Translations under genes and position numbers: made by a program
The notes under the pieces: generated by a model
The model's input: the letters and a program-made list of their open reading frames with translations, nothing else
Told to the model about the DNA's origin: nothing
Database searches by the model: none
Shown here: piece after piece, positions 6,781 through 51,600 of the stretch
How the letters are laid out: each line of letters opens with the position of its first letter
How positions within the stretch are numbered: the stretch's first letter is position 1
Origin: a virus
Length of the DNA: 64,000 nucleotides
Virus record (IMG/VR): IMGVR_UViG_3300037760_000114
Span: 1-64,000 of that record
Reading direction: 5' to 3' (one strand)

Positions 6781-7224
6781 ATGACACAGACCATCACCCG
6801 GGTCGGCAGCGCCAGCGTCGCGGCAGCGATCGCCGAGTACCACCACGGCACGGCTGACTGGCTGCCGGGCGGCGTCGACCACCTCGCCACCGGCTCGCAG
6901 CGGACCGTCTACGTCGACTACGACGCCGAGATCGTCTACAAGCTGGGCATCGACGGCGCCAACCGGCAAGAGGTCTCGACCCTCTCGGCGCTACGCGCAA
7001 GCGGTGTCGGTCACGCACCGGCCGCCGACCTGCACGAAGTGACCGTCGCAGACCTGGACGGCGACACCATCACCGCCACGGTGGTTGCGATGCCGTACCT
7101 GCCTGACGACGGCAGCGTCACTGGCCCGTACCCGATCCTGGACGGTGCCGCTGACCTCAACCCGGCCGGCAACGTGGTCGCTAACGGTGGCCAGCTGTGG
7201 CTGATCGACGCGGGTGGCCTGTGA
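6781..7224 (+). CDS. Minimal protein-kinase-like fold protein (147 aa)
   Basis: G-loop-like LATGSQRTVY, IVYK lysine, helix-C-like E (NRQE), catalytic-loop-like DLNPAGNV, DFG-like LWLIDAG. Confidence 0.65.
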   Translation: MTQTITRVGSASVAAAIAEYHHGTADWLPGGVDHLATGSQRTVYVDYDAEIVYKLGIDGANRQEVSTLSALRASGVGHAPAADLHEVTVADLDGDTITATVVAMPYLPDDGSVTGPYPILDGAADLNPAGNVVANGGQLWLIDAGGL

Positions 7225-8087
7225 GCACGCCCCCGCATCTCGACCCGGCAGTACGCCACGACGTGGTGATCATGTTCGACGCCACCGACTGCAACCCCAA
7301 CGGCGACCCGGACCAGAACAACCAGCCCCGCACCGATGACGAGTCCGGCCACGGGCTGGTCACCGATGTGGCGATCAAGCGGAAGGTCCGCGACACGGTG
7401 GCGCTGCTGCACGGCGACGACCGCCGGTACGGCATCTTCGTGGAGGCCGGGCACGCGCTGAACACCCGTTGGGCCGACGCTCGCGAGAACACCCCCGGTG
7501 CCGCCGACCCGCTGGCCACGCTGTGTGGCATGTACTGGGACGTGCGGATGTTCGGGCAGGTCCTGACCGGCGGCAAGGGTGGACAGTCCTCCTCGGTCCG
7601 GGGTCCGGTACAGCTCACCTTCGGCCGCAGCATCGACCCAGTGCTGCCCACCGACCACACCATCACCCGGGTCACCCAGACCCGGCAGGAAGACATCGAC
7701 AAGGGCGAGAGCACCGAGATCGGCTCGAAGTGGACCGTGCCGTACGGGCTGTACCGCACCCACCTGTACTACTCGCCGGGGCGTGCCGCCAAGACCGGGA
7801 TCACCAGCGACGACCTCGACACGCTGTGGCGGGCGATCGCGGCCATGTTCGAGCACGACCGGTCCAGCAACCGTGGCGGAATGGACATCGCCGGACTGTG
7901 GGTGTTCAGCCACCCGGACGCGCTCGGCGTGGCGCCGTCACGGGCGGTCCTGCGCCGCATCCAGGTCACGGCCGCCGATCCGGGCCGGGCGCCACGCGGC
8001 TACGCCGACTACCGCCGGCAGATCGACCGCGCCGGCATGCCCGCCGGCATCGAGCTGGCCACCATCGTCGACATCTGGGAGGACTGA
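7221..8087 (+). CDS. cas7: Solitary type I-C CRISPR backbone protein Cas7/Csd2 (288 aa)
   Basis: NPNGDP...NQPR...GLVTDVAIKRKVRD, WDVRMFGQV, VRGPVQLTF..SIDP, ITR, KWTVPYGLY, AAKTGIT..DL, MFEHDRS, H...LG: end-to-end Csd2 signature. Confidence 0.95.
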   Translation: MSTPPHLDPAVRHDVVIMFDATDCNPNGDPDQNNQPRTDDESGHGLVTDVAIKRKVRDTVALLHGDDRRYGIFVEAGHALNTRWADARENTPGAADPLATLCGMYWDVRMFGQVLTGGKGGQSSSVRGPVQLTFGRSIDPVLPTDHTITRVTQTRQEDIDKGESTEIGSKWTVPYGLYRTHLYYSPGRAAKTGITSDDLDTLWRAIAAMFEHDRSSNRGGMDIAGLWVFSHPDALGVAPSRAVLRRIQVTAADPGRAPRGYADYRRQIDRAGMPAGIELATIVDIWED

Positions 8088-8092
8088 GAACC

Positions 8093-8371
8093 GTGAGCAC
8101 CATCGGATACGAGATCGAGCGGCACGAGGTGGAGGCGCTGCGGGACAACCTGCTGGGCGATCTACTCGCCGAGCAGGATGACCTGATCGCCTACCAGCGG
8201 CTGACCCGGGAGCAGGCGCTGTGCGACGCGCTCGTGTCGGAGATCAAACGGCTACGCGGCGAGCGGCTGCGGCGGCTGGCTGAGGGGCGGACCGCCGAGC
8301 AGGTGGCCGACCTGACGGGGCTGGGGACGCGGCAGCGGGTGCAGCAACTGATGGCCGTCGGGCTATCCTGA
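8093..8371 (+). CDS. Small HTH protein (Aca-like regulator candidate)
   Basis: GGAGG RBS; C-terminal GRTAEQVADLTGLGTRQRVQQLM helix-turn-helix. Confidence 0.75.
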   Translation: MSTIGYEIERHEVEALRDNLLGDLLAEQDDLIAYQRLTREQALCDALVSEIKRLRGERLRRLAEGRTAEQVADLTGLGTRQRVQQLMAVGLS

Positions 8372-8441
8372 CCGGTATCGGCGGACGGCCGGGGTAGTGG
8401 CCCGGCTGTTCCGCCGCCCAGCCACTACCTGGGAGCATCCG

Positions 8442-9701
8442 ATGCACAGCGACTTCGGTGCCCGCCTACGGGCGCTACGGCTCGACCGGGGACTGTCCCT
8501 GCGCGGCCTCGCCGAACTGGTGCACTACTCACACACTCACATCTATGACCTTGAACGTGGCAGTAAGCCCGCGTCACCCGCGCTGGCCGGCCGGTTGGAC
8601 GCGGCGCTAGACGCAGGCGGTCAACTCGCCGCAGCCCTGACCCCTGCCTCGGGGTGCCACCCGTGGCAACCCGGCCGGGCCCATTTCGGGTCGGTCGACG
8701 CCGCTGATCTGGCTCGCACGCTGACGCAGGTGCCCGGCGAGGCTGATCCACTGCGGCTTGCCCACGAGTGGATGGTCACCGAGCCGCCGCAGCTGCACCA
8801 CCTGCGTGCGGGCCGCCGGATCGGCGAAGAGACGGTGGCTGCGGTTGAGCAGCGGGTGCACCAGCTGCGGCTGATGGACGATCACATGGGAGGGCAGGAG
8901 TCCTACCGCCTCGTCGCTGACGAGCTGGCCGCTACCGGGACGTTGCTGCGGGAGGCGTCGTGTCCGCAGCCGCTGGCGCGGCGGCTACTGGCGGCGGTGG
9001 GGGAACTGGCGCAGCTGGCGGGGTGGGTCGCGTCCGACGCCGGTATGCACGATCGGGCCGAACACCACTACCTGACCGGGGCGTGGGCGGCGTCAGCGGC
9101 CGGTGCGGTGGCGGTCGCGGCCAACAACCTGTCCTGCCTGGCCTACCAGATGGCCGGCCAAGGCCGCCGGGCCGAGGCTGTGGTGTTGGCCCGCACAGCC
9201 GCCGCCCGCGCCGAACGCGAGACATCCCCTGCGGTACGGGCGCTGTTGGGCGAGCGGGTCGCGTGGACGCACGCCCGCGTTGGGGAGCCTGAGGCATGCG
9301 GGCGGGCGCTGGACCGGGTGGACGACATCTACGAGCCCGGCGACGATCCGCCGTGGCTGTACTGGCTCGACCGAGGCGAGATCGAGGTCATGGCGGGCCG
9401 CTGCTGGACTGAACTCGCCCGACCGCTGAGGGCGGTCCCGACCCTCCAGGCTGCGATCGCCAGCTACCCGGCCGACCGGGAACGGGAGACCGCGCTGTAC
9501 CTGTCGTGGCTGGCGGAGTCCCTGATCCAGGCCCATGAGGTGGAGGAAGCGGCGGCGACCGCGCTGCGGGTGGCCGAGCTGGCGACCCGTGCGGGTTCGG
9601 TGCGTGCCAACCAGCGTGTGCGGCTGCTGTCGGACCGGCTGGAGCCCTGGAGTAGTCACCCGGTAGTGGGCGAGTTCCGCCATGCCGCTGGTGTCAGCTA
9701 A
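8442..9701 (+). CDS. XRE-family HTH regulator with C-terminal helical/TPR-like domain (actinomycete type)
   Basis: FGARLRALRLDRGLSLRGLAELVHYSHTHIYDLERG; LRLMDDHMGG and QLAGWVASDAG motifs. Confidence 0.85.
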   Translation: MHSDFGARLRALRLDRGLSLRGLAELVHYSHTHIYDLERGSKPASPALAGRLDAALDAGGQLAAALTPASGCHPWQPGRAHFGSVDAADLARTLTQVPGEADPLRLAHEWMVTEPPQLHHLRAGRRIGEETVAAVEQRVHQLRLMDDHMGGQESYRLVADELAATGTLLREASCPQPLARRLLAAVGELAQLAGWVASDAGMHDRAEHHYLTGAWAASAAGAVAVAANNLSCLAYQMAGQGRRAEAVVLARTAAARAERETSPAVRALLGERVAWTHARVGEPEACGRALDRVDDIYEPGDDPPWLYWLDRGEIEVMAGRCWTELARPLRAVPTLQAAIASYPADRERETALYLSWLAESLIQAHEVEEAAATALRVAELATRAGSVRANQRVRLLSDRLEPWSSHPVVGEFRHAAGVS

Positions 9702-9947
9702 CACGGCACGGGTGTTAGCTGACAGCTGACCCCTTCCGATCATGCATCGTCGCGGGTGACGCTCTGGGGGCAGCGGGTGACGGGCGTCAAGCAAACCCGT
9801 CCGGCGTCCGGCATCCACTGCCCACCCCCTTCCGGTGGTGGAATCCCCCGGGGGGATGCGGTAGCTGGGTCACACGCCCGGTCTACCGCATCCCTCTGAA
9901 TCCGGAGGGGGTGGACGCCAAGGGATGACGAGCCCACCCCCTCCGGA
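9692..9947 (+). promoter_or_regulatory. 13-bp perfect inverted repeat followed by a multi-hairpin leader
   Basis: TGTCAGCTAACAC/GTGTTAGCTGACA (9692-9724); hairpins GGGATGCGGTAG/CTACCGCATCCC and TCCGGAGGGGGTGG/CCACCCCCTCCGGA. Confidence 0.55.
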
Positions 9948-9967
9948 CCTATCGGGAGGTGTGCGCG

Positions 9968-10150
9968 ATGCTCCGGTTCCGGATCTGGCCCCGCCGACAC
10001 CCGGCCGTAGACGCCGGCGATCACGGCCGTGACCCGTCCGGGCGGCTCTACGACGGAGACACAGTGCGCCGGGTCGGTACCGAGCGGTGGGCCGACCTAC
10101 TGCGCGTGAACGAGATCACCGAACGGCGGGGTCGCGATGCACTCCGATGA
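9968..10150 (+). CDS. Small hypothetical protein
   Basis: GGGAGG RBS upstream of ATG. Confidence 0.45.
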   Translation: MLRFRIWPRRHPAVDAGDHGRDPSGRLYDGDTVRRVGTERWADLLRVNEITERRGRDALR

Positions 10151-10343
10151 CGTGGAGCTGTGGACCGCCGCGCGTACGGTCGCTATGCACGTCGCCGGTG
10201 ACGGCTGCGGCCAGTGCCCGCCGGTAGGACCGTGCGGCCTGTACCGGTGGGCGGACGTGCGGCTGCGGCAGTGGGAGACCGAACGCGGCGAGCCGTACCC
10301 GGTACAGGCGCCCGGCTGGTCCGGCGTAGGAGCCAGCACCTAA
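10137..10343 (+). CDS. Small Cys/His-containing hypothetical protein
   Basis: Overlaps upstream gene; H..GDGCGQC....C. Confidence 0.5.
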   Translation: MHSDDVELWTAARTVAMHVAGDGCGQCPPVGPCGLYRWADVRLRQWETERGEPYPVQAPGWSGVGAST

Positions 10344-10370
10344 CGTCCGATCGGGAAGGTAGTGCCCCCC

Positions 10371-10514
10371 ATGGCGAGCAGCGCCGACTACGACGCGGAA
10401 GAGGCCCGCATGCTGCGGGAGCTGCACGAGGCCGACCAGCAGCGCAAGCTCGCCGAGTGGCTGAAGGCTGAGGAAATCCGTGAGGCTGCCGAGCGGCAGC
10501 GACGCGACGGATGA
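10371..10514 (+). CDS. Small charged helical protein (47 aa, not in the ORF track)
   Basis: MASSADYDAEEARMLRELHEADQQRKLAEWLKAEEIREAAERQRRDG, GC3-rich codons. Confidence 0.5.
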   Translation: MASSADYDAEEARMLRELHEADQQRKLAEWLKAEEIREAAERQRRDG

Positions 10515-10736
10515 TCAGGCCGGCCGGTCTGCCACGAACACACCCCGGCCCTGATGACCCCGGATCAGGCCAGCGAACCGAAGCAGCCGCTGCGCTTCCT
10601 TGATCGTGGTCTGACTGGTGCCGTACTCCTCAGCCAACGCCACGATCGACGGCAACACCTGACCCGGCTTCAGCTGCCCGGACTCGATGCGGGCCTTGAT
10701 CGCCTCGTACACGCGCTCATACTCCGGCGTTCCCAT
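10515..10736 (-). CDS. GntR-family winged-helix regulator (KorA/KorSA-like, DNA-binding domain only)
   Basis: YERVYEAIKARIESGQLKPGQVLPSIVALAEEYGTSQTTIKEA...GRGVFV. Confidence 0.9.
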   Translation of the reverse strand: MGTPEYERVYEAIKARIESGQLKPGQVLPSIVALAEEYGTSQTTIKEAQRLLRFAGLIRGHQGRGVFVADRPA

Positions 10737-10792
10737 GATGGTCGTTCTCCCTGCTTGGCGGCATGAGAATTCGACCATGGGCGGGACCTCCT

Positions 10793-10841
10793 CGGCAACC
10801 TAGCCGCCCGCGTTGACTACGGCGACCTAGCCGCCTATCCT
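10793..10841 (+). promoter_or_regulatory. Promoter with twin 16-bp direct-repeat operator
   Basis: CGGC(A/G)ACCTAGCCGCC at 10793-10808 and 10820-10835; TTGACT (10813-10818), 17 bp, TATCCT (10836-10841). Confidence 0.75.
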
Positions 10842-10878
10842 ACGCGGGCGGGCGCCCCTGCTTGGCGGCAGCGGCACC

Positions 10879-11244
10879 GTGGGCCCCGACCCCCCCGGTT
10901 TGGGCTCGTCCGGGTCCGGCGGGCGCGGAAACGCACACCCTGCCCGCCGGACCTGGACTATCTCCTCAGCGGAGGCGACGCGCGTGGATCACTGGCCCCG
11001 GCCGGCCGACATCGGCACCGAGCCGTGGCCCACGCTGGCCGAGGCGGTCGAGGCGGCGAAGGCTTTGCGGGGACAGGGGTGGACAGTGCGTATGTACGCG
11101 GCGGGAGACCTGGCGTCACATCCGCGGCGAGTCGACGACTCCCGCATCCTGGCCACGGTGCACCATCCAGACGGGGCTCAGGCCGGTGAGGTGTGCTACT
11201 GGCCGGCTCCGGAGCCGGACGACCACGGGGACCCGGGCGAGTGA
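10879..11244 (+). CDS. Hypothetical protein (start may be ~10984)
   Basis: ORF downstream of promoter; GGAGG before GTG at ~10984. Confidence 0.5.
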   Translation: MGPDPPGLGSSGSGGRGNAHPARRTWTISSAEATRVDHWPRPADIGTEPWPTLAEAVEAAKALRGQGWTVRMYAAGDLASHPRRVDDSRILATVHHPDGAQAGEVCYWPAPEPDDHGDPGE

Positions 11245-11387
11245 GACTCCCCGGCCGTCGCACACCACAGTCCTCGGGGACTGTGTGCGGGTTGCAACGC
11301 AAGACGCGGCGGCCGGGGCAACAAACAGCGGGGGCAGGAACCTGACCGGGACAGTCCCGGGGGGGCACAAACAGATGGGAAGTACGG

Positions 11388-12044
11388 ATGGGGATCGCAA
11401 AACTGGGTGCGGTGGCGGTCGCGGGGATCGCCGCTGGCGCTCTGGCGTTCGGTGGCTCAGCCGCCGCACACCACAACATCCCGGAGGCCAGCGTCTCCGG
11501 TGACGACTGCACCATCACCGGCACCAGCATGTGGGCGGAGCCGGAGGGCACCCACCTGGTGGCCAACACCACGCTGGTGGTGCTCGTCGGCGGCGAGGTT
11601 CACCACGCCCTGATCGGCGAGCCGCTGACCGTGGAGGATCTGCCGGACGGCACCACCGAGGCGCAGTGGCGGATCTGGGGCGGCGGCGAGCGGGACTACG
11701 ACAGCCCGCCGTTGGCCGACCTAGACGCGCTGGTGACGTACCTCGCAGCCGACCCGGCTAACTCGCCGCTGGACGCAGACGCGCCCGGCATCGACTGGTA
11801 CGACATCAAGGTGTACGGCTGCCCCGACCCGGAGCCGACGCCGGAGCCGACGACCGAGCCGACGGTGGAACCCACCGTCGAGCCGACCGAGCCAGCCGGT
11901 GAGGGTGGCGAGGATGACCCGGGTGAGCTGGCGCAGACCGGCACCCGGACCACACTGCTGGCCGGTGGCGCGGTGGGGCTGCTGACGCTCGGCGGGGGCC
12001 TGTTCTGGCTGGCCCGCAACCGGCGGGTCAGCTTTACCGCCTGA
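11388..12044 (+). CDS. Secreted, sortase-anchored (LAxTG) surface protein
   Basis: Signal peptide ending AAA-H; (EPT)n linker; LAQTG + TM + basic tail RNRR. Confidence 0.85.
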   Translation: MGIAKLGAVAVAGIAAGALAFGGSAAAHHNIPEASVSGDDCTITGTSMWAEPEGTHLVANTTLVVLVGGEVHHALIGEPLTVEDLPDGTTEAQWRIWGGGERDYDSPPLADLDALVTYLAADPANSPLDADAPGIDWYDIKVYGCPDPEPTPEPTTEPTVEPTVEPTEPAGEGGEDDPGELAQTGTRTTLLAGGAVGLLTLGGGLFWLARNRRVSFTA

Positions 12045-12050
12045 CCCTGG

Positions 12051-12113
12051 GCGCACGAAGGCGCCCCGGCTCTCCCGCAACCATCGGGGAGAAGCCGGGG
12101 CGCCTTCGTGCGC
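12051..12113 (+). terminator. Long hairpin terminator
   Basis: GCGCACGAAGGCGCCCCGGCT...AGCCGGGGCGCCTTCGTGCGC. Confidence 0.75.
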
Positions 12114-12145
12114 GCGCGATAGCCGTTCGGGTGATGCCTAGCCCA

Positions 12146-12174
12146 TTGCGCGATTAAACGCCGTAGTTTAAACT
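12146..12174 (+). promoter_or_regulatory. Housekeeping-sigma promoter with TAAAC/GTTTA repeats
   Basis: TTGCGC (12146-12151), 17 bp, TAAACT (12169-12174); AT-rich island. Confidence 0.65.
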
Positions 12175-12215
12175 GGTAGCATGCCGCACGGAGCGGCCCA
12201 AGCGAAGGAGACATC

Positions 12216-12695
12216 GTGAGCAACACCCCGATGAGCAAGAAGCAGGAAGCCCTGATCCTGAGCCTTGCCCGCCAGCTCGACGGCGGCAGCTACCGCTTCA
12301 TCTCGCAGTGCGAGCACCTGCTGCCGGTGTCCCGCAGCGCTGCTCGCGGCCTGAGCACCACCGACGCCAGCCTGTGCATCGACCACCTGCAGGCCGAGGT
12401 GGACAAGGCCGAGCTGGCAAAGCAGGCCGCCGAGCGCGGCGAGACCGCTCCCACCCCGGAGCCGACTCCGGAGCCGGAGGGCGGCCCCACCGCCGACCAA
12501 CTGCTCGCGATGCTCGGCAAGAAGATCACGGTCACCTGGGTCAACCGGGACGGCGAGACCGTGACCTGGGATGGCACCTGCCGCTGGGTGCAGGCCAGCG
12601 ACAAGGACGGCACCCCTGAGATCAACATCATGACCGCTCGGGGCATGAAGGCCATGCGGACCCACCGGCTCACCTCCTGGGTCACCCACATATGA
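12216..12695 (+). CDS. Two-domain hypothetical protein (anti-defence candidate)
   Basis: AAGGAG RBS; helical N-domain (SKKQ...LSTTDASLCIDHL), PTPEPTPEPE linker, beta-rich C-domain. Confidence 0.75.
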   Translation: MSNTPMSKKQEALILSLARQLDGGSYRFISQCEHLLPVSRSAARGLSTTDASLCIDHLQAEVDKAELAKQAAERGETAPTPEPTPEPEGGPTADQLLAMLGKKITVTWVNRDGETVTWDGTCRWVQASDKDGTPEINIMTARGMKAMRTHRLTSWVTHI

Positions 12696-12892
12696 GCGAC
12701 ACCCGCCCACGCGGGCGCCCGACCAAAGGTGACCGGGTCGAGACCCGGCTAGAGCCCGATGTCCGGGCAGCCCTCGCCGAGTGGGCTTCCGACCGACCCG
12801 ATGTGGACCGCCGCGACGGCGAGCCGGTGGAAGCGGACGCCATCCGGGTGATCGTGGCCGAGAGGCTTGACGCGGATGGCTACCTGCCGTAG
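12692..12892 (+). CDS. Small RHH-like DNA-binding protein
   Basis: ATGA overlap; RGRPTKGDRVETRLEPDVRAALAEWA...EADAIRVIVAERL. Confidence 0.65.
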   Translation: MSDTRPRGRPTKGDRVETRLEPDVRAALAEWASDRPDVDRRDGEPVEADAIRVIVAERLDADGYLP

Positions 12893-12902
12893 CGTCGGCG
12901 CC

Positions 12903-13006
12903 GTTGCGGCCGGTCCGCCGGCCGCCCTTCATTAAGGGGTGGACTGGCTGAAGGTCCGTCGCCCTGGCACCTTTGTCGCGGGCCACCGCCCGCCCTTCAC
13001 TGAGAC
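12903..13006 (+). CRISPR. CRISPR mini-array: repeat - 36-nt spacer - degenerate repeat
   Basis: R1 12903-12938 GTTGCGGCCGGTCCGCCGGCCGCCCTTCATTAAGGG (8-bp stem); spacer 12939-12974; R2 12975-13006 GTCGCGGGCCACCGCCCGCCCTTCACTGAGAC (6-bp stem); shared GTYGCGG...CCGCCCTTCAYTRAG. Confidence 0.75.
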
Positions 13007-13101
13007 GCCCCCGGCCCACAGTCGGGGGCGTTCTGCTGACCCCGGACACGACGAAGCGCCCCGCGCCCACCCCGTAACAGGGGGAAGGACGCGGGGCGCT
13101 C
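13005..13101. terminator. Two hairpins closing the mini-array transcript and the convergent late operon
   Basis: ACGCCCCCG..CGGGGGCGT (13005-13031) and AGCGCCCCGCG...CGCGGGGCGCT (~13055-13100). Confidence 0.6.
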
Positions 13102-39795: not shown

Positions 39796-41265
39796 CTACC
39801 CGACCGGGACAGGCACAGGCTCGGGCTCCTCCGCCAGTGCGCCGACATCCGCTAGGTCCGGCGCCCGGCCGCCCGCAGCAAGTTTGCGGGCGATCTCAGC
39901 CAACGGATCGTCCAGCGCCGACTGCTGATCCTCGGCCTCCATCCGGCCGATCTGCACATCGGTGTAGCCCAGATCCTCCCGGGCCTGACGCAAGGTGATG
40001 ATCGGACGCGGCGTGGTGGAGAACAGCTTCACGGTGGCGTCGGCCTTCTGCGCCACCGTCGGGGTGGAGGCGTCGCGCCAGCTGACCTCCAGCCGCTTCA
40101 GCCGCACGTCCCACTCGCCGGTCTGGAAGCGGCGCACCAGCCGCATCGTGCGTTCCCACGATCCGCCGAAGTTGCGCTGCTTGCGTTCGGCCCGCTTCAC
40201 CAGTCTGGATTCGGCCGACCGGATCGCGTCCGCGCTGGCCGGGTTGTCGGTGGTGAAGCCCAGATAGTGCGGCGGCAAGCCGGCGACCGCGGCGGTCACC
40301 CGCGCCAAGGTGTTGATCGACTCGTGGAAGTTGCTCAACGACGCGGCCGGGAACTGGAACTCCTTGCCGTCCTTGTTCTTTAGTGTGAACAGCCGGCCCA
40401 TGATGGCCTGCAACGCGGTGAGCTTGTTACCCATCTCGTCTTCGAGATCACCCGGTCCGATACCGAAGAAGCCGCGCAGCGGCAGAGCCTGAAACTCGGC
40501 CCCCAGCATCATGTCCGTGGCGAGCTTGTTCGCCGCATCCGACAGGGGGATGATCGGCGCCAGCTCGCTGGTGCCGTACCGCGGCTGCGTCACCCCGTGG
40601 GCGACACGCTGACCCGCGCGCAGCCGGGGCCGATTCAGCAGCGGTACTACCGGCACCTCGCCGAGGCCATGCTCATCTCGGTCGACCTCTTTCCAGCCGC
40701 CCTGCCACTCGTAGTAGCTGGTGCGGTCGGGCAGGTACAGGGTGGCGTACCGGTGCGTCATGGTCGTGAACGACTCGACCTCGGCGACCCGCCGCAGCGC
40801 CGCCCGCACCCGCCGGGTCCGCGGGTCGATCTCGGCGAAAATCTCCAGCGGAGACTCCACGGTCACCCGCGGCGTGGCAGCGTCGTCCTCGTTGGTACCG
40901 ACACAGACCGCAGCCCGACCCATCGTCAGCGTGTCGACATGCCCCTGCTCGCTCTGCTCGTCGAGGTCGTTGTCCTGCCACACCCGCCACAGGTCCTTGT
41001 CGCCCTCGACCTCATCCGGCAGCCGGAAACCCTCCACGTCGAGGCGTTCCTCCACCGTGTCGACCACCAGCTGCGGCCAGCCGATGATCACCGGTGCGAT
41101 GCGGTCGCCCACCTCCCGCAGAATCTCGGGATGCATGTACGTGAGCGGCTGCTGACCCTCGTAGTACCGGTCATAGGCTTCCAGCCGGGGAATCTCGGCG
41201 TCGTGCATGCGGGCCAGCCGGTTCACCCAGCCGGCGTCGGTGTCAGGAAGCGTCGGCACAGCCAC
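39796..41265 (-). CDS. Portal protein (SPP1 gp6-like)
   Basis: YYEGQQPL, VEERLDVEGF, HGLGEVPVV, NPASADAI. Confidence 0.92.
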   Translation of the reverse strand: MAVPTLPDTDAGWVNRLARMHDAEIPRLEAYDRYYEGQQPLTYMHPEILREVGDRIAPVIIGWPQLVVDTVEERLDVEGFRLPDEVEGDKDLWRVWQDNDLDEQSEQGHVDTLTMGRAAVCVGTNEDDAATPRVTVESPLEIFAEIDPRTRRVRAALRRVAEVESFTTMTHRYATLYLPDRTSYYEWQGGWKEVDRDEHGLGEVPVVPLLNRPRLRAGQRVAHGVTQPRYGTSELAPIIPLSDAANKLATDMMLGAEFQALPLRGFFGIGPGDLEDEMGNKLTALQAIMGRLFTLKNKDGKEFQFPAASLSNFHESINTLARVTAAVAGLPPHYLGFTTDNPASADAIRSAESRLVKRAERKQRNFGGSWERTMRLVRRFQTGEWDVRLKRLEVSWRDASTPTVAQKADATVKLFSTTPRPIITLRQAREDLGYTDVQIGRMEAEDQQSALDDPLAEIARKLAAGGRAPDLADVGALAEEPEPVPVPVG

Positions 41266-49380: not shown

Positions 49381-50073
49381 CGACTACGCCTCCCGCCGAG
49401 CCGGGCATCCACAGCGGCGACCAGCCGGATAGCCACGGACATGCCGGCAGCGATCACCACCGCCACAGCGGCGACCCGCAGCGCGGTCGGCTGCCCGGCC
49501 AGCGCTATGCGTACCACCTCCGCAGCGGCCACGATGACGCATGCGCAGATGGCGCTGAACCAGGCCAGCCGTAGCGGCCGTGGCCACCGCGACAGCCAGG
49601 CCGTGAAGCCCGCGGCGCGCAGGAACGGCGACGGCGGGTCGACCCGGGAAGGGCCGTAAGGCGGATGCGACCAACGGCGCCCGTCGGGCAGGGTGCCGCC
49701 GTACTCGCGCGGGTCGCCGTCGCCGAGCTCCGGTATGCGGCGGGTGCCGTCGTTGAGCCAGCGGCTGGCTGCCGCGTTCAGCGCAGGGTCAGGCTGCATG
49801 TGGACCACCACCGGAATGAACTGCACGCGCGGCGCGGATGTCCGGATCAGCGTCGAGCCGGGCCTGAGCCTCGCGGCGGATGTCCACCGGTAGCTCATCG
49901 AACGCCGCCTGATACCGGTGGCCGGTCAGCCTGCGGAGGATGTCCGGCGGGCAAGTGGCGAGCACGGTCGGGTGCAGGCTGCTGGCGATGTCCCGCAAGG
50001 TGACGGCGGCCATCAAAAGCTCGCTGGCCACGTCCACGATCGTGGCCCGATCAGTACCGGGGTCAGGCTGCAT
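49377..50073 (-). other. Two hypothetical CDSs (49377-49799 membrane protein; 49789-50073)
   Basis: Both start MQPD with an 11-nt overlap to the upstream stop. Confidence 0.55.
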
Positions 50074-51154
50074 CGGAACCTCCAGGGGCATTGTCGCGTA
50101 CCGGGCTGAACCGGGCGGCCAGCGTATACGCGCCGTGGCGGTCCAAGCTGTTCCGGCCACGGTCGTAGCGGCGGGTGGTGCGGGGATCGGCGTGACCGGC
50201 GAAGTCCTGCACATCCCGCAGCGGCATTCCAGCATCCAGAAGCTCGGTGATGGCAGTGTGCCGTAGCGAGTGGGGGGAGAGGCGGGCCGCCTCGGCGATG
50301 TGGGTTCGGCGGGCCAGGCGGCGTACGAGACGCCACACGTACGGGCCGGTCATGCGGTGACCGGCGACGAGCAGCAGCGGGCCGCTGGTGGGGTTGCCGC
50401 GTGTGGTCAGCATCTGGTCGATGGGGGCACCGACCATCGGGGTGATGACCACCTCGCGGTGCTTGCCGCCCTTCCATGGCACCCGCAGGGTTCGGTGGCC
50501 ACGGTGGTGACCCAGCCCTTCCACGTTGGCGCCGGTGACCGACCCGCAGCGCAGCCCGTTGACGAGCAGGAGCCGAACCAGCACCGACGAGGACAGTCCG
50601 TCGTTGTCGGCGGCGGCGATCAGCCGGTCGGCTTCGTCGCGGGACAGGGCCACGGTGGTGGAGTCGTCACGGTCGACGTTGGGCCGGCCGTCGACATCGG
50701 CGGGGTTGAATTGCACGATCGGCGCGTCGCCTTTGGTGTTGCGCAGGATGTACCGGTACCACGAGGAGACCGCCGAGACGCGGCGGGCGATACTGGACTC
50801 GGCGGCCGGGTCACCATCGTCGGTGACGCCGTGCTGGCGCTGGTGGGCGATCCAGTCATGGATGTCCATCGGCTTGGCCCCGGTGGGGTCCACGTCGATG
50901 CGGGCGCAGTGGGTGATCCAGTCCTTCAGGTCGCGGCGGTAGCCCGCGACGGTGTGGCCGGAGCGGCGGGACTTCAGCCATGCCTCGGTGATGCGGGCGA
51001 GCCGAGCCAGGTCCTGTGGGTGTAGCGCGACGCCGTGCAGTGGGTGGGTGAGAGGTTCCAACGCCTCCCCTGGCCGAAGATAATCACCATTATCTTGCGC
51101 GCCATTCCCGGGAAGGGACGTTAACGGGAATGAGACCACTTCCTGGCCACTCAC
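50063..51154 (-). CDS. XerC/D-like tyrosine recombinase (start uncertain, may be downstream of ~51070)
   Basis: HTVAGYRRDL, SIARRVSAVSSWY, GLR, KGGK, PHSLRHT, VQDFAGHADPRTTRRY. Confidence 0.93.
   Translation of the reverse strand: MSGQEVVSFPLTSLPGNGAQDNGDYLRPGEALEPLTHPLHGVALHPQDLARLARITEAWLKSRRSGHTVAGYRRDLKDWITHCARIDVDPTGAKPMDIHDWIAHQRQHGVTDDGDPAAESSIARRVSAVSSWYRYILRNTKGDAPIVQFNPADVDGRPNVDRDDSTTVALSRDEADRLIAAADNDGLSSSVLVRLLLVNGLRCGSVTGANVEGLGHHRGHRTLRVPWKGGKHREVVITPMVGAPIDQMLTTRGNPTSGPLLLVAGHRMTGPYVWRLVRRLARRTHIAEAARLSPHSLRHTAITELLDAGMPLRDVQDFAGHADPRTTRRYDRGRNSLDRHGAYTLAARFSPVRDNAPGGSDAA
51073..51100. other. dif-like recombination site
   Basis: GCCGAAGATAA-TCACCA-TTATCTTGCGC (11-6-11, AT-rich palindromic core) at the 5' end of the recombinase gene. 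Confidence 0.65.
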
Positions 51155-51600
51155 GGCTGGCCTCCAGGTCCGTCCGGGCCGGGTCCGTAGCCGCCCGGAT
51201 GCACCACAGCGGTGTCCCGGATGCCCGGCAGCGGTACGACCGCAGGTGGGGCCGATGGACCGTCCACCCTCGGTGGGATGCGGAGCATCTTGCGCGCCAG
51301 GCGATCTGCGGCCAGCCGGTCCCGGGCCTCGCCGATCGCCTTCCGGTGCCGCCAGCGTTGCCGCCGGGTGGCCCGGCGCCAGGTGAACCCGGCTATACAC
51401 TGCCCGACAGCGTGGTGCCGCCCGCCCCGGTCGCACACCGGGCACGCATTGCCGATCCGCCACAGCCGGGTACACACGTCACACACCCACAGGTCGCCCA
51501 GCAGCAGCCACTCGCCGGACTCCTGATAAACGTCCGGCAGGTCGCACGAGTGCGCCGGCTCCGGTCTCGCTGGCTCAGACTGCCTCAGAACCCAGCCCAT
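51151..51600 (-). CDS. Hypothetical Cys-rich protein
   Basis: H.C, CDVC, CPVC; GGGGG RBS. Confidence 0.6.
   Translation of the reverse strand: MGWVLRQSEPARPEPAHSCDLPDVYQESGEWLLLGDLWVCDVCTRLWRIGNACPVCDRGGRHHAVGQCIAGFTWRRATRRQRWRHRKAIGEARDRLAADRLARKMLRIPPRVDGPSAPPAVVPLPGIRDTAVVHPGGYGPGPDGPGGQP

Follow-up and report, generated by a model that had tools for sequence, protein, structure and literature searches.

The virus record IMGVR_UViG_3300037760_000114 of IMG/VR is the genome of a temperate actinobacterial phage of Micromonosporaceae type, 104,084 bp in length, and its first 64 kb (64,000 nt) form the window analysed here. The plus-strand accessory arm of this phage (1–12.9 kb), which is convergent with the lysis genes, carries both a solitary type I-C cas7 gene and a miniature CRISPR (short palindromic repeats, clustered and regularly interspaced) array with one spacer, termed the mini-array. 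A sequence-only reading of positions 6781–13006 had proposed that the two form, with host subunits, a hybrid ribonucleoprotein for nuclease-free silencing or competitor exclusion; as a caveat it had added that they may be independent counter-measures against two host systems. The caveat fits the evidence best. Cas7 and the mini-array match different host CRISPR subtypes and show no joint inheritance, and thus are most likely two separate counter-CRISPR devices. The accessory arm would then hold a pair of mutually independent modules with different host subtypes as their targets, a reading to which we assign a probability of about 0.65.

In the proposed mechanism, Module 1 (6781–8087) pairs a diverged I-C Cas7 with a minimal kinase-like protein, and Cas7 would act as an anti-CRISPR (Acr). 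It may be built into the Cascade of the host I-C system as a defective part of the backbone, or it may instead titrate CRISPR RNA (crRNA) or Cas5c/Cas8c; its action would resemble that of AcrIB3 and AcrIB4, which are Cas5 and Cas8b homologues. Module 2 (12216–13031) would be an operon that consists of a variable open reading frame (ORF), a ribbon-helix-helix (RHH)-like gene, two mimics of type I-G repeats around a 36-nt spacer, and a predicted terminator. Its transcript would be bound, and probably cut, by host Csb2. The RNA would then either sequester Csb2 and Cas7g as an RNA anti-CRISPR or load as a guide chosen by the phage; the decoy is favoured over the guide because of the setting, which resembles an acr-aca (anti-CRISPR and anti-CRISPR-associated) locus, and because of the age of the repeats.

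A solitary type I-C Cas7 and its lineage

The phage Cas7 (Csd2) has 288 amino acids and is encoded at 7221–8087 on the plus strand (ORF 7197/7221–8087). It matches PF05107 (Cas_Cas7) over profile positions 2–249 of 249 (E 2.3e-79, 266.9 bits) and the type I-C Cas7/Csd2 profile TIGR02589 over positions 1–283 of 284 (240.8 bits, cutoff 182). The nearest solved structures are Cas7 chains of I-C Cascade, 8g9s_B and 7kha_B. Its top cellular relatives are Micromonosporaceae Cas7c proteins, which are 66–68% identical, and no nearer homologue was found in a collection of 5.8 billion proteins. The phage protein is host-derived and has long diverged.

The gene stands alone, as the sequence-only reading had held. 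It lies neither within a cas operon (cas3-cas5c-cas8c-cas7c-cas4-cas1-cas2) nor beside an I-C array, whereas canonical Micromonosporaceae cas7c genes adjoin arrays of 37-nt repeats that end in ..GAGGATCGCAAC. No other cas homologue and no I-C-like repeat were found anywhere in the complete 104-kb phage genome. A search of the genome for Cas5 (PF09704) was negative, and tblastx comparison with two complete host I-C operons matched cas7 only, with nothing else above about 35 bits; the Pfam search for Cas8c ran without a working positive control. With that limit on Cas8c, the earlier statement that the arm supplies no nuclease is upheld.

Eight further cas7c genes without arrays are present in Micromonosporaceae proviruses, a prophage-like locus, a genomic island and a plasmid. 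They include those of two Salinispora proviruses (L003, IMGVR_UViG_2519103185_000002, and L004, 2563366533_000005), of a Verrucosispora prophage-like locus (L022) that is syntenic with the phage arm and has FtsK-like and HTH_31 genes at matching positions, of a Plantactinospora island (L014), and of a Micromonospora zamorensis plasmid with a kinase-like gene upstream. In a quick IQ-TREE phylogeny of 125 Cas7c sequences, all nine known solo genes share one clade of 12 (Shimodaira–Hasegawa-like approximate likelihood ratio test 99, stem 0.29, long tips), and this clade is nested among Micromonosporaceae Cas7c. Solo cas7c is a single monophyletic, fast-evolving lineage on mobile elements without arrays or other cas genes. 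Like the viral cas-derived anti-CRISPRs of Katz et al., it has a clade of its own, and it is a cas homologue carried by viruses and mobile elements away from arrays and cas operons. Of the 139 canonical-invariant positions, defined by a conservation of 95% or more among canonical Cas7c, the solo clade retains 95 (68%). At 12 of the 139, two thirds or more of the clade carry a replacement; these sites cluster at residues 84–124 (seven of the 12) and at 211–224. In the Plantactinospora island, the solo cas7 and kinase segment (L014 3979–6703) adjoins an OLD-family ATPase-TOPRIM gene and a UvrD-like helicase gene, a Gabija-like pair, as well as an IS110 transposase gene.

Type I-C immunity acts on this phage group, and the group is tied to Micromonosporaceae hosts. 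TTC is the type I-C protospacer-adjacent motif (PAM). Among 1,581 I-C spacers collected from host loci, one from Plantactinospora endophytica (L061) matches the phage portal gene at 40220–40257 (minus strand) in 34 of 35 bases, with 5′-TTC immediately upstream, and other I-C spacers with TTC match Salinispora proviruses that bear solo cas7. The spacers that match the phage and the Salinispora solo-cas7 proviruses (40220–40257 and loci L138–L141) come from Plantactinospora, Salinispora and Micromonospora arrays. In the three clearest matches (the phage portal gene, L141 and L138), TTC or TCC is directly upstream. It is these matches that link the phage group to Micromonosporaceae and reveal its exposure to I-C immunity.

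Upstream of cas7 is a minimal kinase-like ORF of 147 amino acids (6781–7224, plus strand), whose stop codon overlaps the cas7 start, as in translational coupling. It has no match in Pfam, PHROG or NCBIfam. Its family comprises ∼49 clusters with the motifs GxGSxR, VYK, NRxE, AMPYLPxD, D-x5-N and WLIDAGG (alignment A1). The AlphaFold2 model has a predicted local distance difference test score of 85, and its top Foldseek matches, weak in E-value (∼3e-3) with a probability of 0.99, are all kinases: the RNA kinase TkArkI, the minimal kinases OspG and NleH1, SRPK1 and APH. Homologues with 65% identity lie directly 5′ of cas7 in exactly the array-less loci. The ∼145-amino-acid family is mostly confined to Micromonosporaceae mobile elements. 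A predicted complex of Cas7 with the kinase-like protein scored 0.01, which weighs for neither side.

A type I-G-like repeat cassette

The mini-array begins 10 nt 3′ of the stop codon of ORF 12692–12892 and is on the plus strand throughout. Repeat 1 (R1, 12903–12938) is a 36-nt mimic of a type I-G repeat, with 5′ GTTGC, an 8-bp stem, a 4-nt loop and the tail GCCCTTCATTAAGGG. It is followed by a 36-nt spacer (12939–12974) and by Repeat 2 (R2, 12975–13006), a 32-nt I-G mimic with a 6-bp stem and the tail GCCCTTCACTGAGAC. A terminator-like hairpin (13005–13031; 11-bp stem, −22.5 kcal/mol, z −4.6) closes the cassette. R1 and R2 are about 75–80% alike, with 81% identity over the best 26 nt and a 4-nt deletion in R2.

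Type I-G arrays of potential hosts came to light when 401 Micromonosporaceae genomes were searched for a pair of tail motifs spaced as in an array: 17 of them have long arrays, and the reversed-pattern control gave no match. The 17 do not include G113, G072, G145, G205, G220 or G224, genomes marked as unpublished, on which nothing stated here depends. Their repeats are 36 nt long, for example GTCGC followed by an 8-bp stem and GCCCTTCATTGAGGC, and the arrays with the GCCCTTCATTGAGGC tail adjoin genes for Cas7g/Csb1, Csb2, Cas3g (665–684 bits), Cas4g/Cas1g and Cas2. A covariance model was built from 12 distinct host I-G repeats of Micromonosporaceae alone, the phage repeats not being included. 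In the 64-kb window its only significant matches are R2 (24.6 bits, E 3.1e-5) and R1 (24.0 bits, E 4.6e-5); the next-best score is 9.6 bits. Both matches are full length, and all pairs are standard. The mini-array postulated in the sequence-only reading is therefore real, and the family profiles together with this model bear out its caveat that the Cas7 is I-C and the repeat ends are I-G-like. Genuine host I-G repeats score 45–63 bits, as compared with 24–25 for the phage units, which are thus distant mimics: in sequence and structure they resemble type I-G repeats, though weakly when set against genuine ones.

R1 has the host length and the host two-hairpin fold with a different, fully compensated stem. 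The stems of R1, R2, a unit of a related cassette described below (G407 U1) and three host repeat types differ in sequence, and all are perfectly paired. Host I-G repeats (L116–L135) fold as two hairpins, the 8-bp stem and a CCUU/GAGG pairing in the tail, and a single G-to-A change in the R1 tail converts a U·G pair of the small hairpin to U-A. The 36-nt length of the phage spacer is the mode among 140 host I-G spacers.

A reading of the mini-array as chance similarity or terminator hairpins was held first and was abandoned once the tail-pattern search had uncovered the real I-G arrays. The early signs that pointed to chance were four other loci in the genome with equal repeats, unremarkable hairpin z-scores, no match in Rfam, no likeness to the 37-nt repeats beside canonical cas7c, and the absence of the tail motif from relatives. 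In Markov-shuffled genomes, 26-nt repeats as good as this one and with CRISPR-like spacing turn up at a rate of 0.1 per genome; the real genome holds five such loci. Several candidates from IMG/VR were rejected: three matches to a 19-nt motif are unrelated low-GC terminators, four viral contigs with a doubled tail motif contain low-GC coding repeats, and a scan with the 14-mer tail gave mostly chance matches in coding DNA, with L159/G407 alone genuine.

The mini-array is the 3′ part of a cassette with two small plus-strand ORFs. The first encodes 159 amino acids (12216–12695) and is a candidate anti-CRISPR gene by position only. It has no family match and no relative in IMG/VR; the C-terminal half of the predicted protein has a weak structural resemblance to WYL-domain proteins (template-modelling score 0.4–0.49). 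The second (12692–12892) encodes a 66-amino-acid protein with a putative RHH fold and is the conserved anchor of the cassette. Neither product matches a known Acr or Aca family. A second cassette is present in viral contig G407 (IMGVR_UViG_3300024430_000001, 58 kb) at G407:21700–22450, equivalent to L267 9701–10450. This contig is from a distant relative, with terminase and portal proteins ∼40–59% identical to those of the phage. Its RHH-like homologue is 69% identical and directly upstream of I-G-like repeats, and the ORF 5′ of it is unrelated to the 159-amino-acid ORF. A variable upstream ORF with a conserved small regulator looks like the pattern of acr-aca loci. Three units follow the RHH-like gene of G407. 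The first is the repeat tail alone and begins 13 nt past the RHH stop codon; 36 nt further on comes a good match to I-G repeats (28 bits), and another 34 nt separate this from the third unit, a hairpin whose tail is degenerate. A terminator ends the series. The spacers of the two phages are wholly different in sequence, with a length kept at 34–36 nt. No further copies of the RHH-like gene were found in metagenome contigs or in the 401 Micromonosporaceae genomes.

The cassette is set apart from the cas7 unit by a 65-nt palindrome at 12051–12113 (self-BLAST inverted match, 86% over 65 nt), a presumptive terminator just 3′ of the stop codon of ORF 11388–12044; being upstream of the cassette, it sits between the two. 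Other genes of the arm include one downstream of cas7 for an NsdA-family HTH-TPR regulator (HTH_31; 8397–9701, plus strand; PF13560, E 3e-13; NF053720, 251 bits), and ORF 11388–12044 is the gene of a surface protein with an LAETG sortase anchor. The families of these two proteins are characteristic of filamentous actinomycetes. The phage record has a 127-bp terminal overlap and an estimated completeness of 100%. Terminase, portal, capsid, tape-measure, tail and holin genes occupy the minus strand at ∼13.1–43.4 kb, and an integrase gene is at 50063–51475. There are 34 tRNA genes, most of them in a single minus-strand block at 81972–95167, which is unusual alongside an integrase. The close relatives recognized by their capsid proteins (L071–L073) are fragmentary, and the region of cas7 and the mini-array falls outside them.

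One joint system or two modules

A joint system would have the phage Cas7c polymerize on the mini-array RNA, alone or together with host subunits, to give a nuclease-free silencing complex. Both parts are on the same strand of one arm and, as had been stated, 4.8 kb apart; no nuclease gene was found, Cas7 proteins are established to bind an RNA backbone with little sequence preference, and a 36-nt spacer suits a six-subunit backbone. The protein, however, is I-C and the repeats are I-G. The cognate I-G backbone is Cas7g/Csb1 and its processing enzyme is Csb2, whereas in I-C it is Cas5c, on the I-C 5′ handle, that nucleates backbone assembly (PMC9638904), and the I-C handle (..GAGGATCGCAAC) does not resemble the tail of R1 or of R2. 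The two loci are in separate transcription units. The co-occurrence proposed earlier as a check likewise failed to appear: none of the five other solo-cas7 elements, two whole proviruses among them, has an I-G-like unit, and neither do four contigs with the kinase-like gene, while whole-contig tblastx of G407 found no Cas7c match. Cas7c is absent from four of five I-G hosts checked, and I-G arrays therefore do not need it. One genome, G233, carries both subtypes, so that one phage can meet both I-C and I-G. The hybrid ribonucleoprotein is, on these grounds, very unlikely. A different arrangement, in which Cas7c, possibly regulated by the mini-kinase, would build an autonomous nuclease-free silencing filament on a phage RNA (the I-G-like unit or another) without poisoning Cascade, has a similarly slight probability.

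Within the two-module reading the alternative to a decoy is a working guide, with Csb2 yielding one crRNA by which the host I-G Cascade would be directed at a host gene or at a competing mobile element. The predicted crRNA would consist of the 8-nt handle ATTAAGGG, the 36-nt spacer and the R2 hairpin. The unit is a complete repeat-spacer-repeat with both hairpins intact, and its spacer is of the host modal length, while the differing spacer sequences of the two phages, at a near-constant length, would suit a guide as well. The I-G 5′ handle is barely contacted by protein, and mismatches in it may therefore be tolerated (PMC9638904); viral mini-arrays in superinfection exclusion provide a precedent. 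However, no protospacer for the phage spacer was found in IMG/VR or metagenome contigs, where the scans required an exact match except at every sixth base, nor in the 401 Micromonosporaceae genomes, a phage database or the loci examined. R1 and R2 diverge from one another and are far from the sampled host repeats, which argues against a recent capture, and despite their repeat-spacer-repeat order they fall short of the at least 90% identity between copies by which SRUFinder defines a mini-array (PMC10651486). In addition, the conserved small RHH-like gene with a variable upstream ORF resembles an acr-aca locus. A guide function is accordingly possible, but the less probable of the two.

Several observations weigh against the two-module reading. 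Most of the conserved residues of solo Cas7 are kept, and for this reason it may be a working backbone protein and not a faulty one. The mini-kinase, a frequent partner of Cas7, is left without a place if Cas7 is an anti-CRISPR. Both the putative RHH fold and the putative Aca role of the 66-amino-acid protein are read from its sequence pattern. Only one of the three G407 units matches the I-G model well. Among 140 I-G spacers, a thin sample, none matches the phage, and the I-C and I-G systems considered are those of presumptive hosts, the sampled Micromonosporaceae. Finally, the scores of R1 and R2 are within the range of decayed terminal repeats of host arrays.

The last point allows that the phage has acquired a piece of some host I-G array, and that the mini-array is this piece, non-functional and in decay. 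A score of 24–25 bits is that of degenerate terminal host repeats, R2 is short by 4 nt, and two of the three G407 units are degenerate. Yet the stem pairs are perfect (8 of 8 in R1 and 6 of 6 in R2) in spite of many substitutions, the G-to-A change in the R1 tail strengthens the second hairpin, and the cassette is kept between the RHH-like gene and a terminator in two phages as distant as the phage and G407. Decay is thus quite improbable. Somewhat less so, though still unlikely, is that solo Cas7c is no anti-CRISPR at all, but belongs with the mini-kinase to another module of mobile elements, serving for example in superinfection exclusion or regulation, or binding RNA in a role unrelated to Cascade. 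The kinase-like gene adjoins solo cas7 in each of the six loci examined, with translational coupling in two of them, the retention of 68% of the canonical-invariant residues is in keeping with such a role, and the lysogen genomes G004 and G005 contain neither a second cas7c nor Cas3g and have no resident I-C system as a target. On the other hand, the occurrence of the kinase family without cas7 in four viral contigs (L102, L105, L106 and L107) shows that the two genes need not go together. Selection for a device against I-C has a direct cause, in that this very phage group is targeted by I-C spacers with correct PAMs, and anti-CRISPRs that are Cas homologues with clades of their own have a precedent (Katz et al., bioRxiv 10.1101/2023.06.24.545427).

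Related systems and biological meaning

Each of the two modules belongs to a known kind, Module 1 to the viral cas-derived anti-CRISPRs and Module 2 to the repeat-mimic RNAs or viral mini-arrays; neither a Cas7-type nor an I-G-type instance is characterized in the literature examined. AcrIB3 is a Cas5 homologue, AcrIB4 a homologue of the Cas8b C-terminus and AcrVIA2 a Cas3 homologue, and these represent orphan viral cas genes that serve as anti-CRISPRs; the Cas5 and Cas8b homologues have been shown to be faulty Cascade subunits (Katz et al., bioRxiv 10.1101/2023.06.24.545427; Nature 2024). A review from 2026 on anti-CRISPRs with noncanonical mechanisms names these three as the only Cas homologues described, with no Cas7 type (PMC13131331). 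The phage Cas7 is like them in being a homologue of a Cascade subunit on a phage, without an array or cas operon and with a well-supported clade of its own. Two members of that clade, the genes of both Salinispora proviruses (L003 and L004), are already among the 358 orphan viral cas genes of Table S3 of Katz et al. It differs in that the subunit is I-C Cas7, with 62–68% identity to host Cas7c as against 38% for AcrIB3/AcrIB4, and in that solo cas7c, as yet a candidate anti-CRISPR gene, mostly has a minimal kinase-like gene as its partner.

The RNA anti-CRISPRs (Racrs) RacrIF1 and RacrIC1 are found beside acr genes, RacrIC1 being 11 nt after acrIC5 (Camara-Wilpert et al., Nature 2023, PMC10651486). 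The phage unit is similarly a repeat mimic with no cas genes of the same subtype nearby, it keeps the hairpin for the processing enzyme, and it starts 10 nt after a stop codon, directly 3′ of small genes in one operon; its neighbour is the RHH-like ORF with a variable ORF upstream. Unlike the Racrs, it has two units around a spacer of canonical length instead of a single unit, it is linked to a conserved RHH-like gene, and it is of subtype I-G, which does not appear in the main text of that paper. Binding to Csb2/Cas7g is here putative. Virus-borne mini-arrays serve inter-virus conflict, according to the background given in the same paper (PMC10651486, refs 4 and 14). The phage unit shares with them the repeat-spacer-repeat order in a viral genome and a dependence on host Cas proteins, but no target was found for its spacer, and its repeats are mutually divergent and distant from host repeats.

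The crRNA of type I-G has a 36-nt repeat with a long hairpin, an 8-nt 5′ handle and a mature length of ∼72 nt, with Csb2 on the 3′ hairpin (Shangguan et al., NAR 2022, PMC9638904). R1 has the same length and fold, the 36-nt spacer is compatible with such a crRNA, and the phage product would be ∼68 nt. R2, however, is 4 nt shorter, the handles differ at two positions from the Micromonosporaceae consensus ATTGAGGC, and the phage unit is neither beside cas genes nor within a long array.

The one described case of a RAMP (repeat-associated mysterious protein) and a guide both supplied by a phage for nuclease-free silencing is VIPR, which consists of the Vipr protein and GGY/NN vrRNAs (bioRxiv 10.64898/2026.04.26.720920). 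In the phage genome, outside the window, there are tracts of 6–14 NNRCC pentamers at 85105–86494 (85.1–86.5 kb), which read GGYNN on the minus strand and are of the VIPR type. The Vipr lineage, however, is apart from Cas5, Cas6 and Cas7, whereas the phage Cas7 is a Csd2 of the ordinary I-C kind, and the 12.9-kb RNA has a CRISPR-type repeat in place of a pentamer tract. That a Cas7c filament would be a CRISPR-derived parallel to VIPR, by way of a captured host backbone subunit, is very doubtful, and the idea of a phage that supplies both Cas7 and its guide fails here.

For the study of anti-CRISPRs, the solo Cas7c lineage offers at least 10 natural variants with defined lineage-specific substitutions and with matching host spacers and PAMs, which makes subunit poisoning by a backbone protein directly testable. 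The cassette of an RHH-like gene with I-G mimics is known from two phages; it would add type I-G to the subtypes with repeat-mimic RNAs, and the RHH-like gene is a small conserved marker by which similar loci may be found. Subtypes I-C and I-G both occur in Micromonosporaceae. If the proposed functions are true, a single temperate actinophage would carry a protein decoy against the one and an RNA decoy, or a hijacking guide, against the other.

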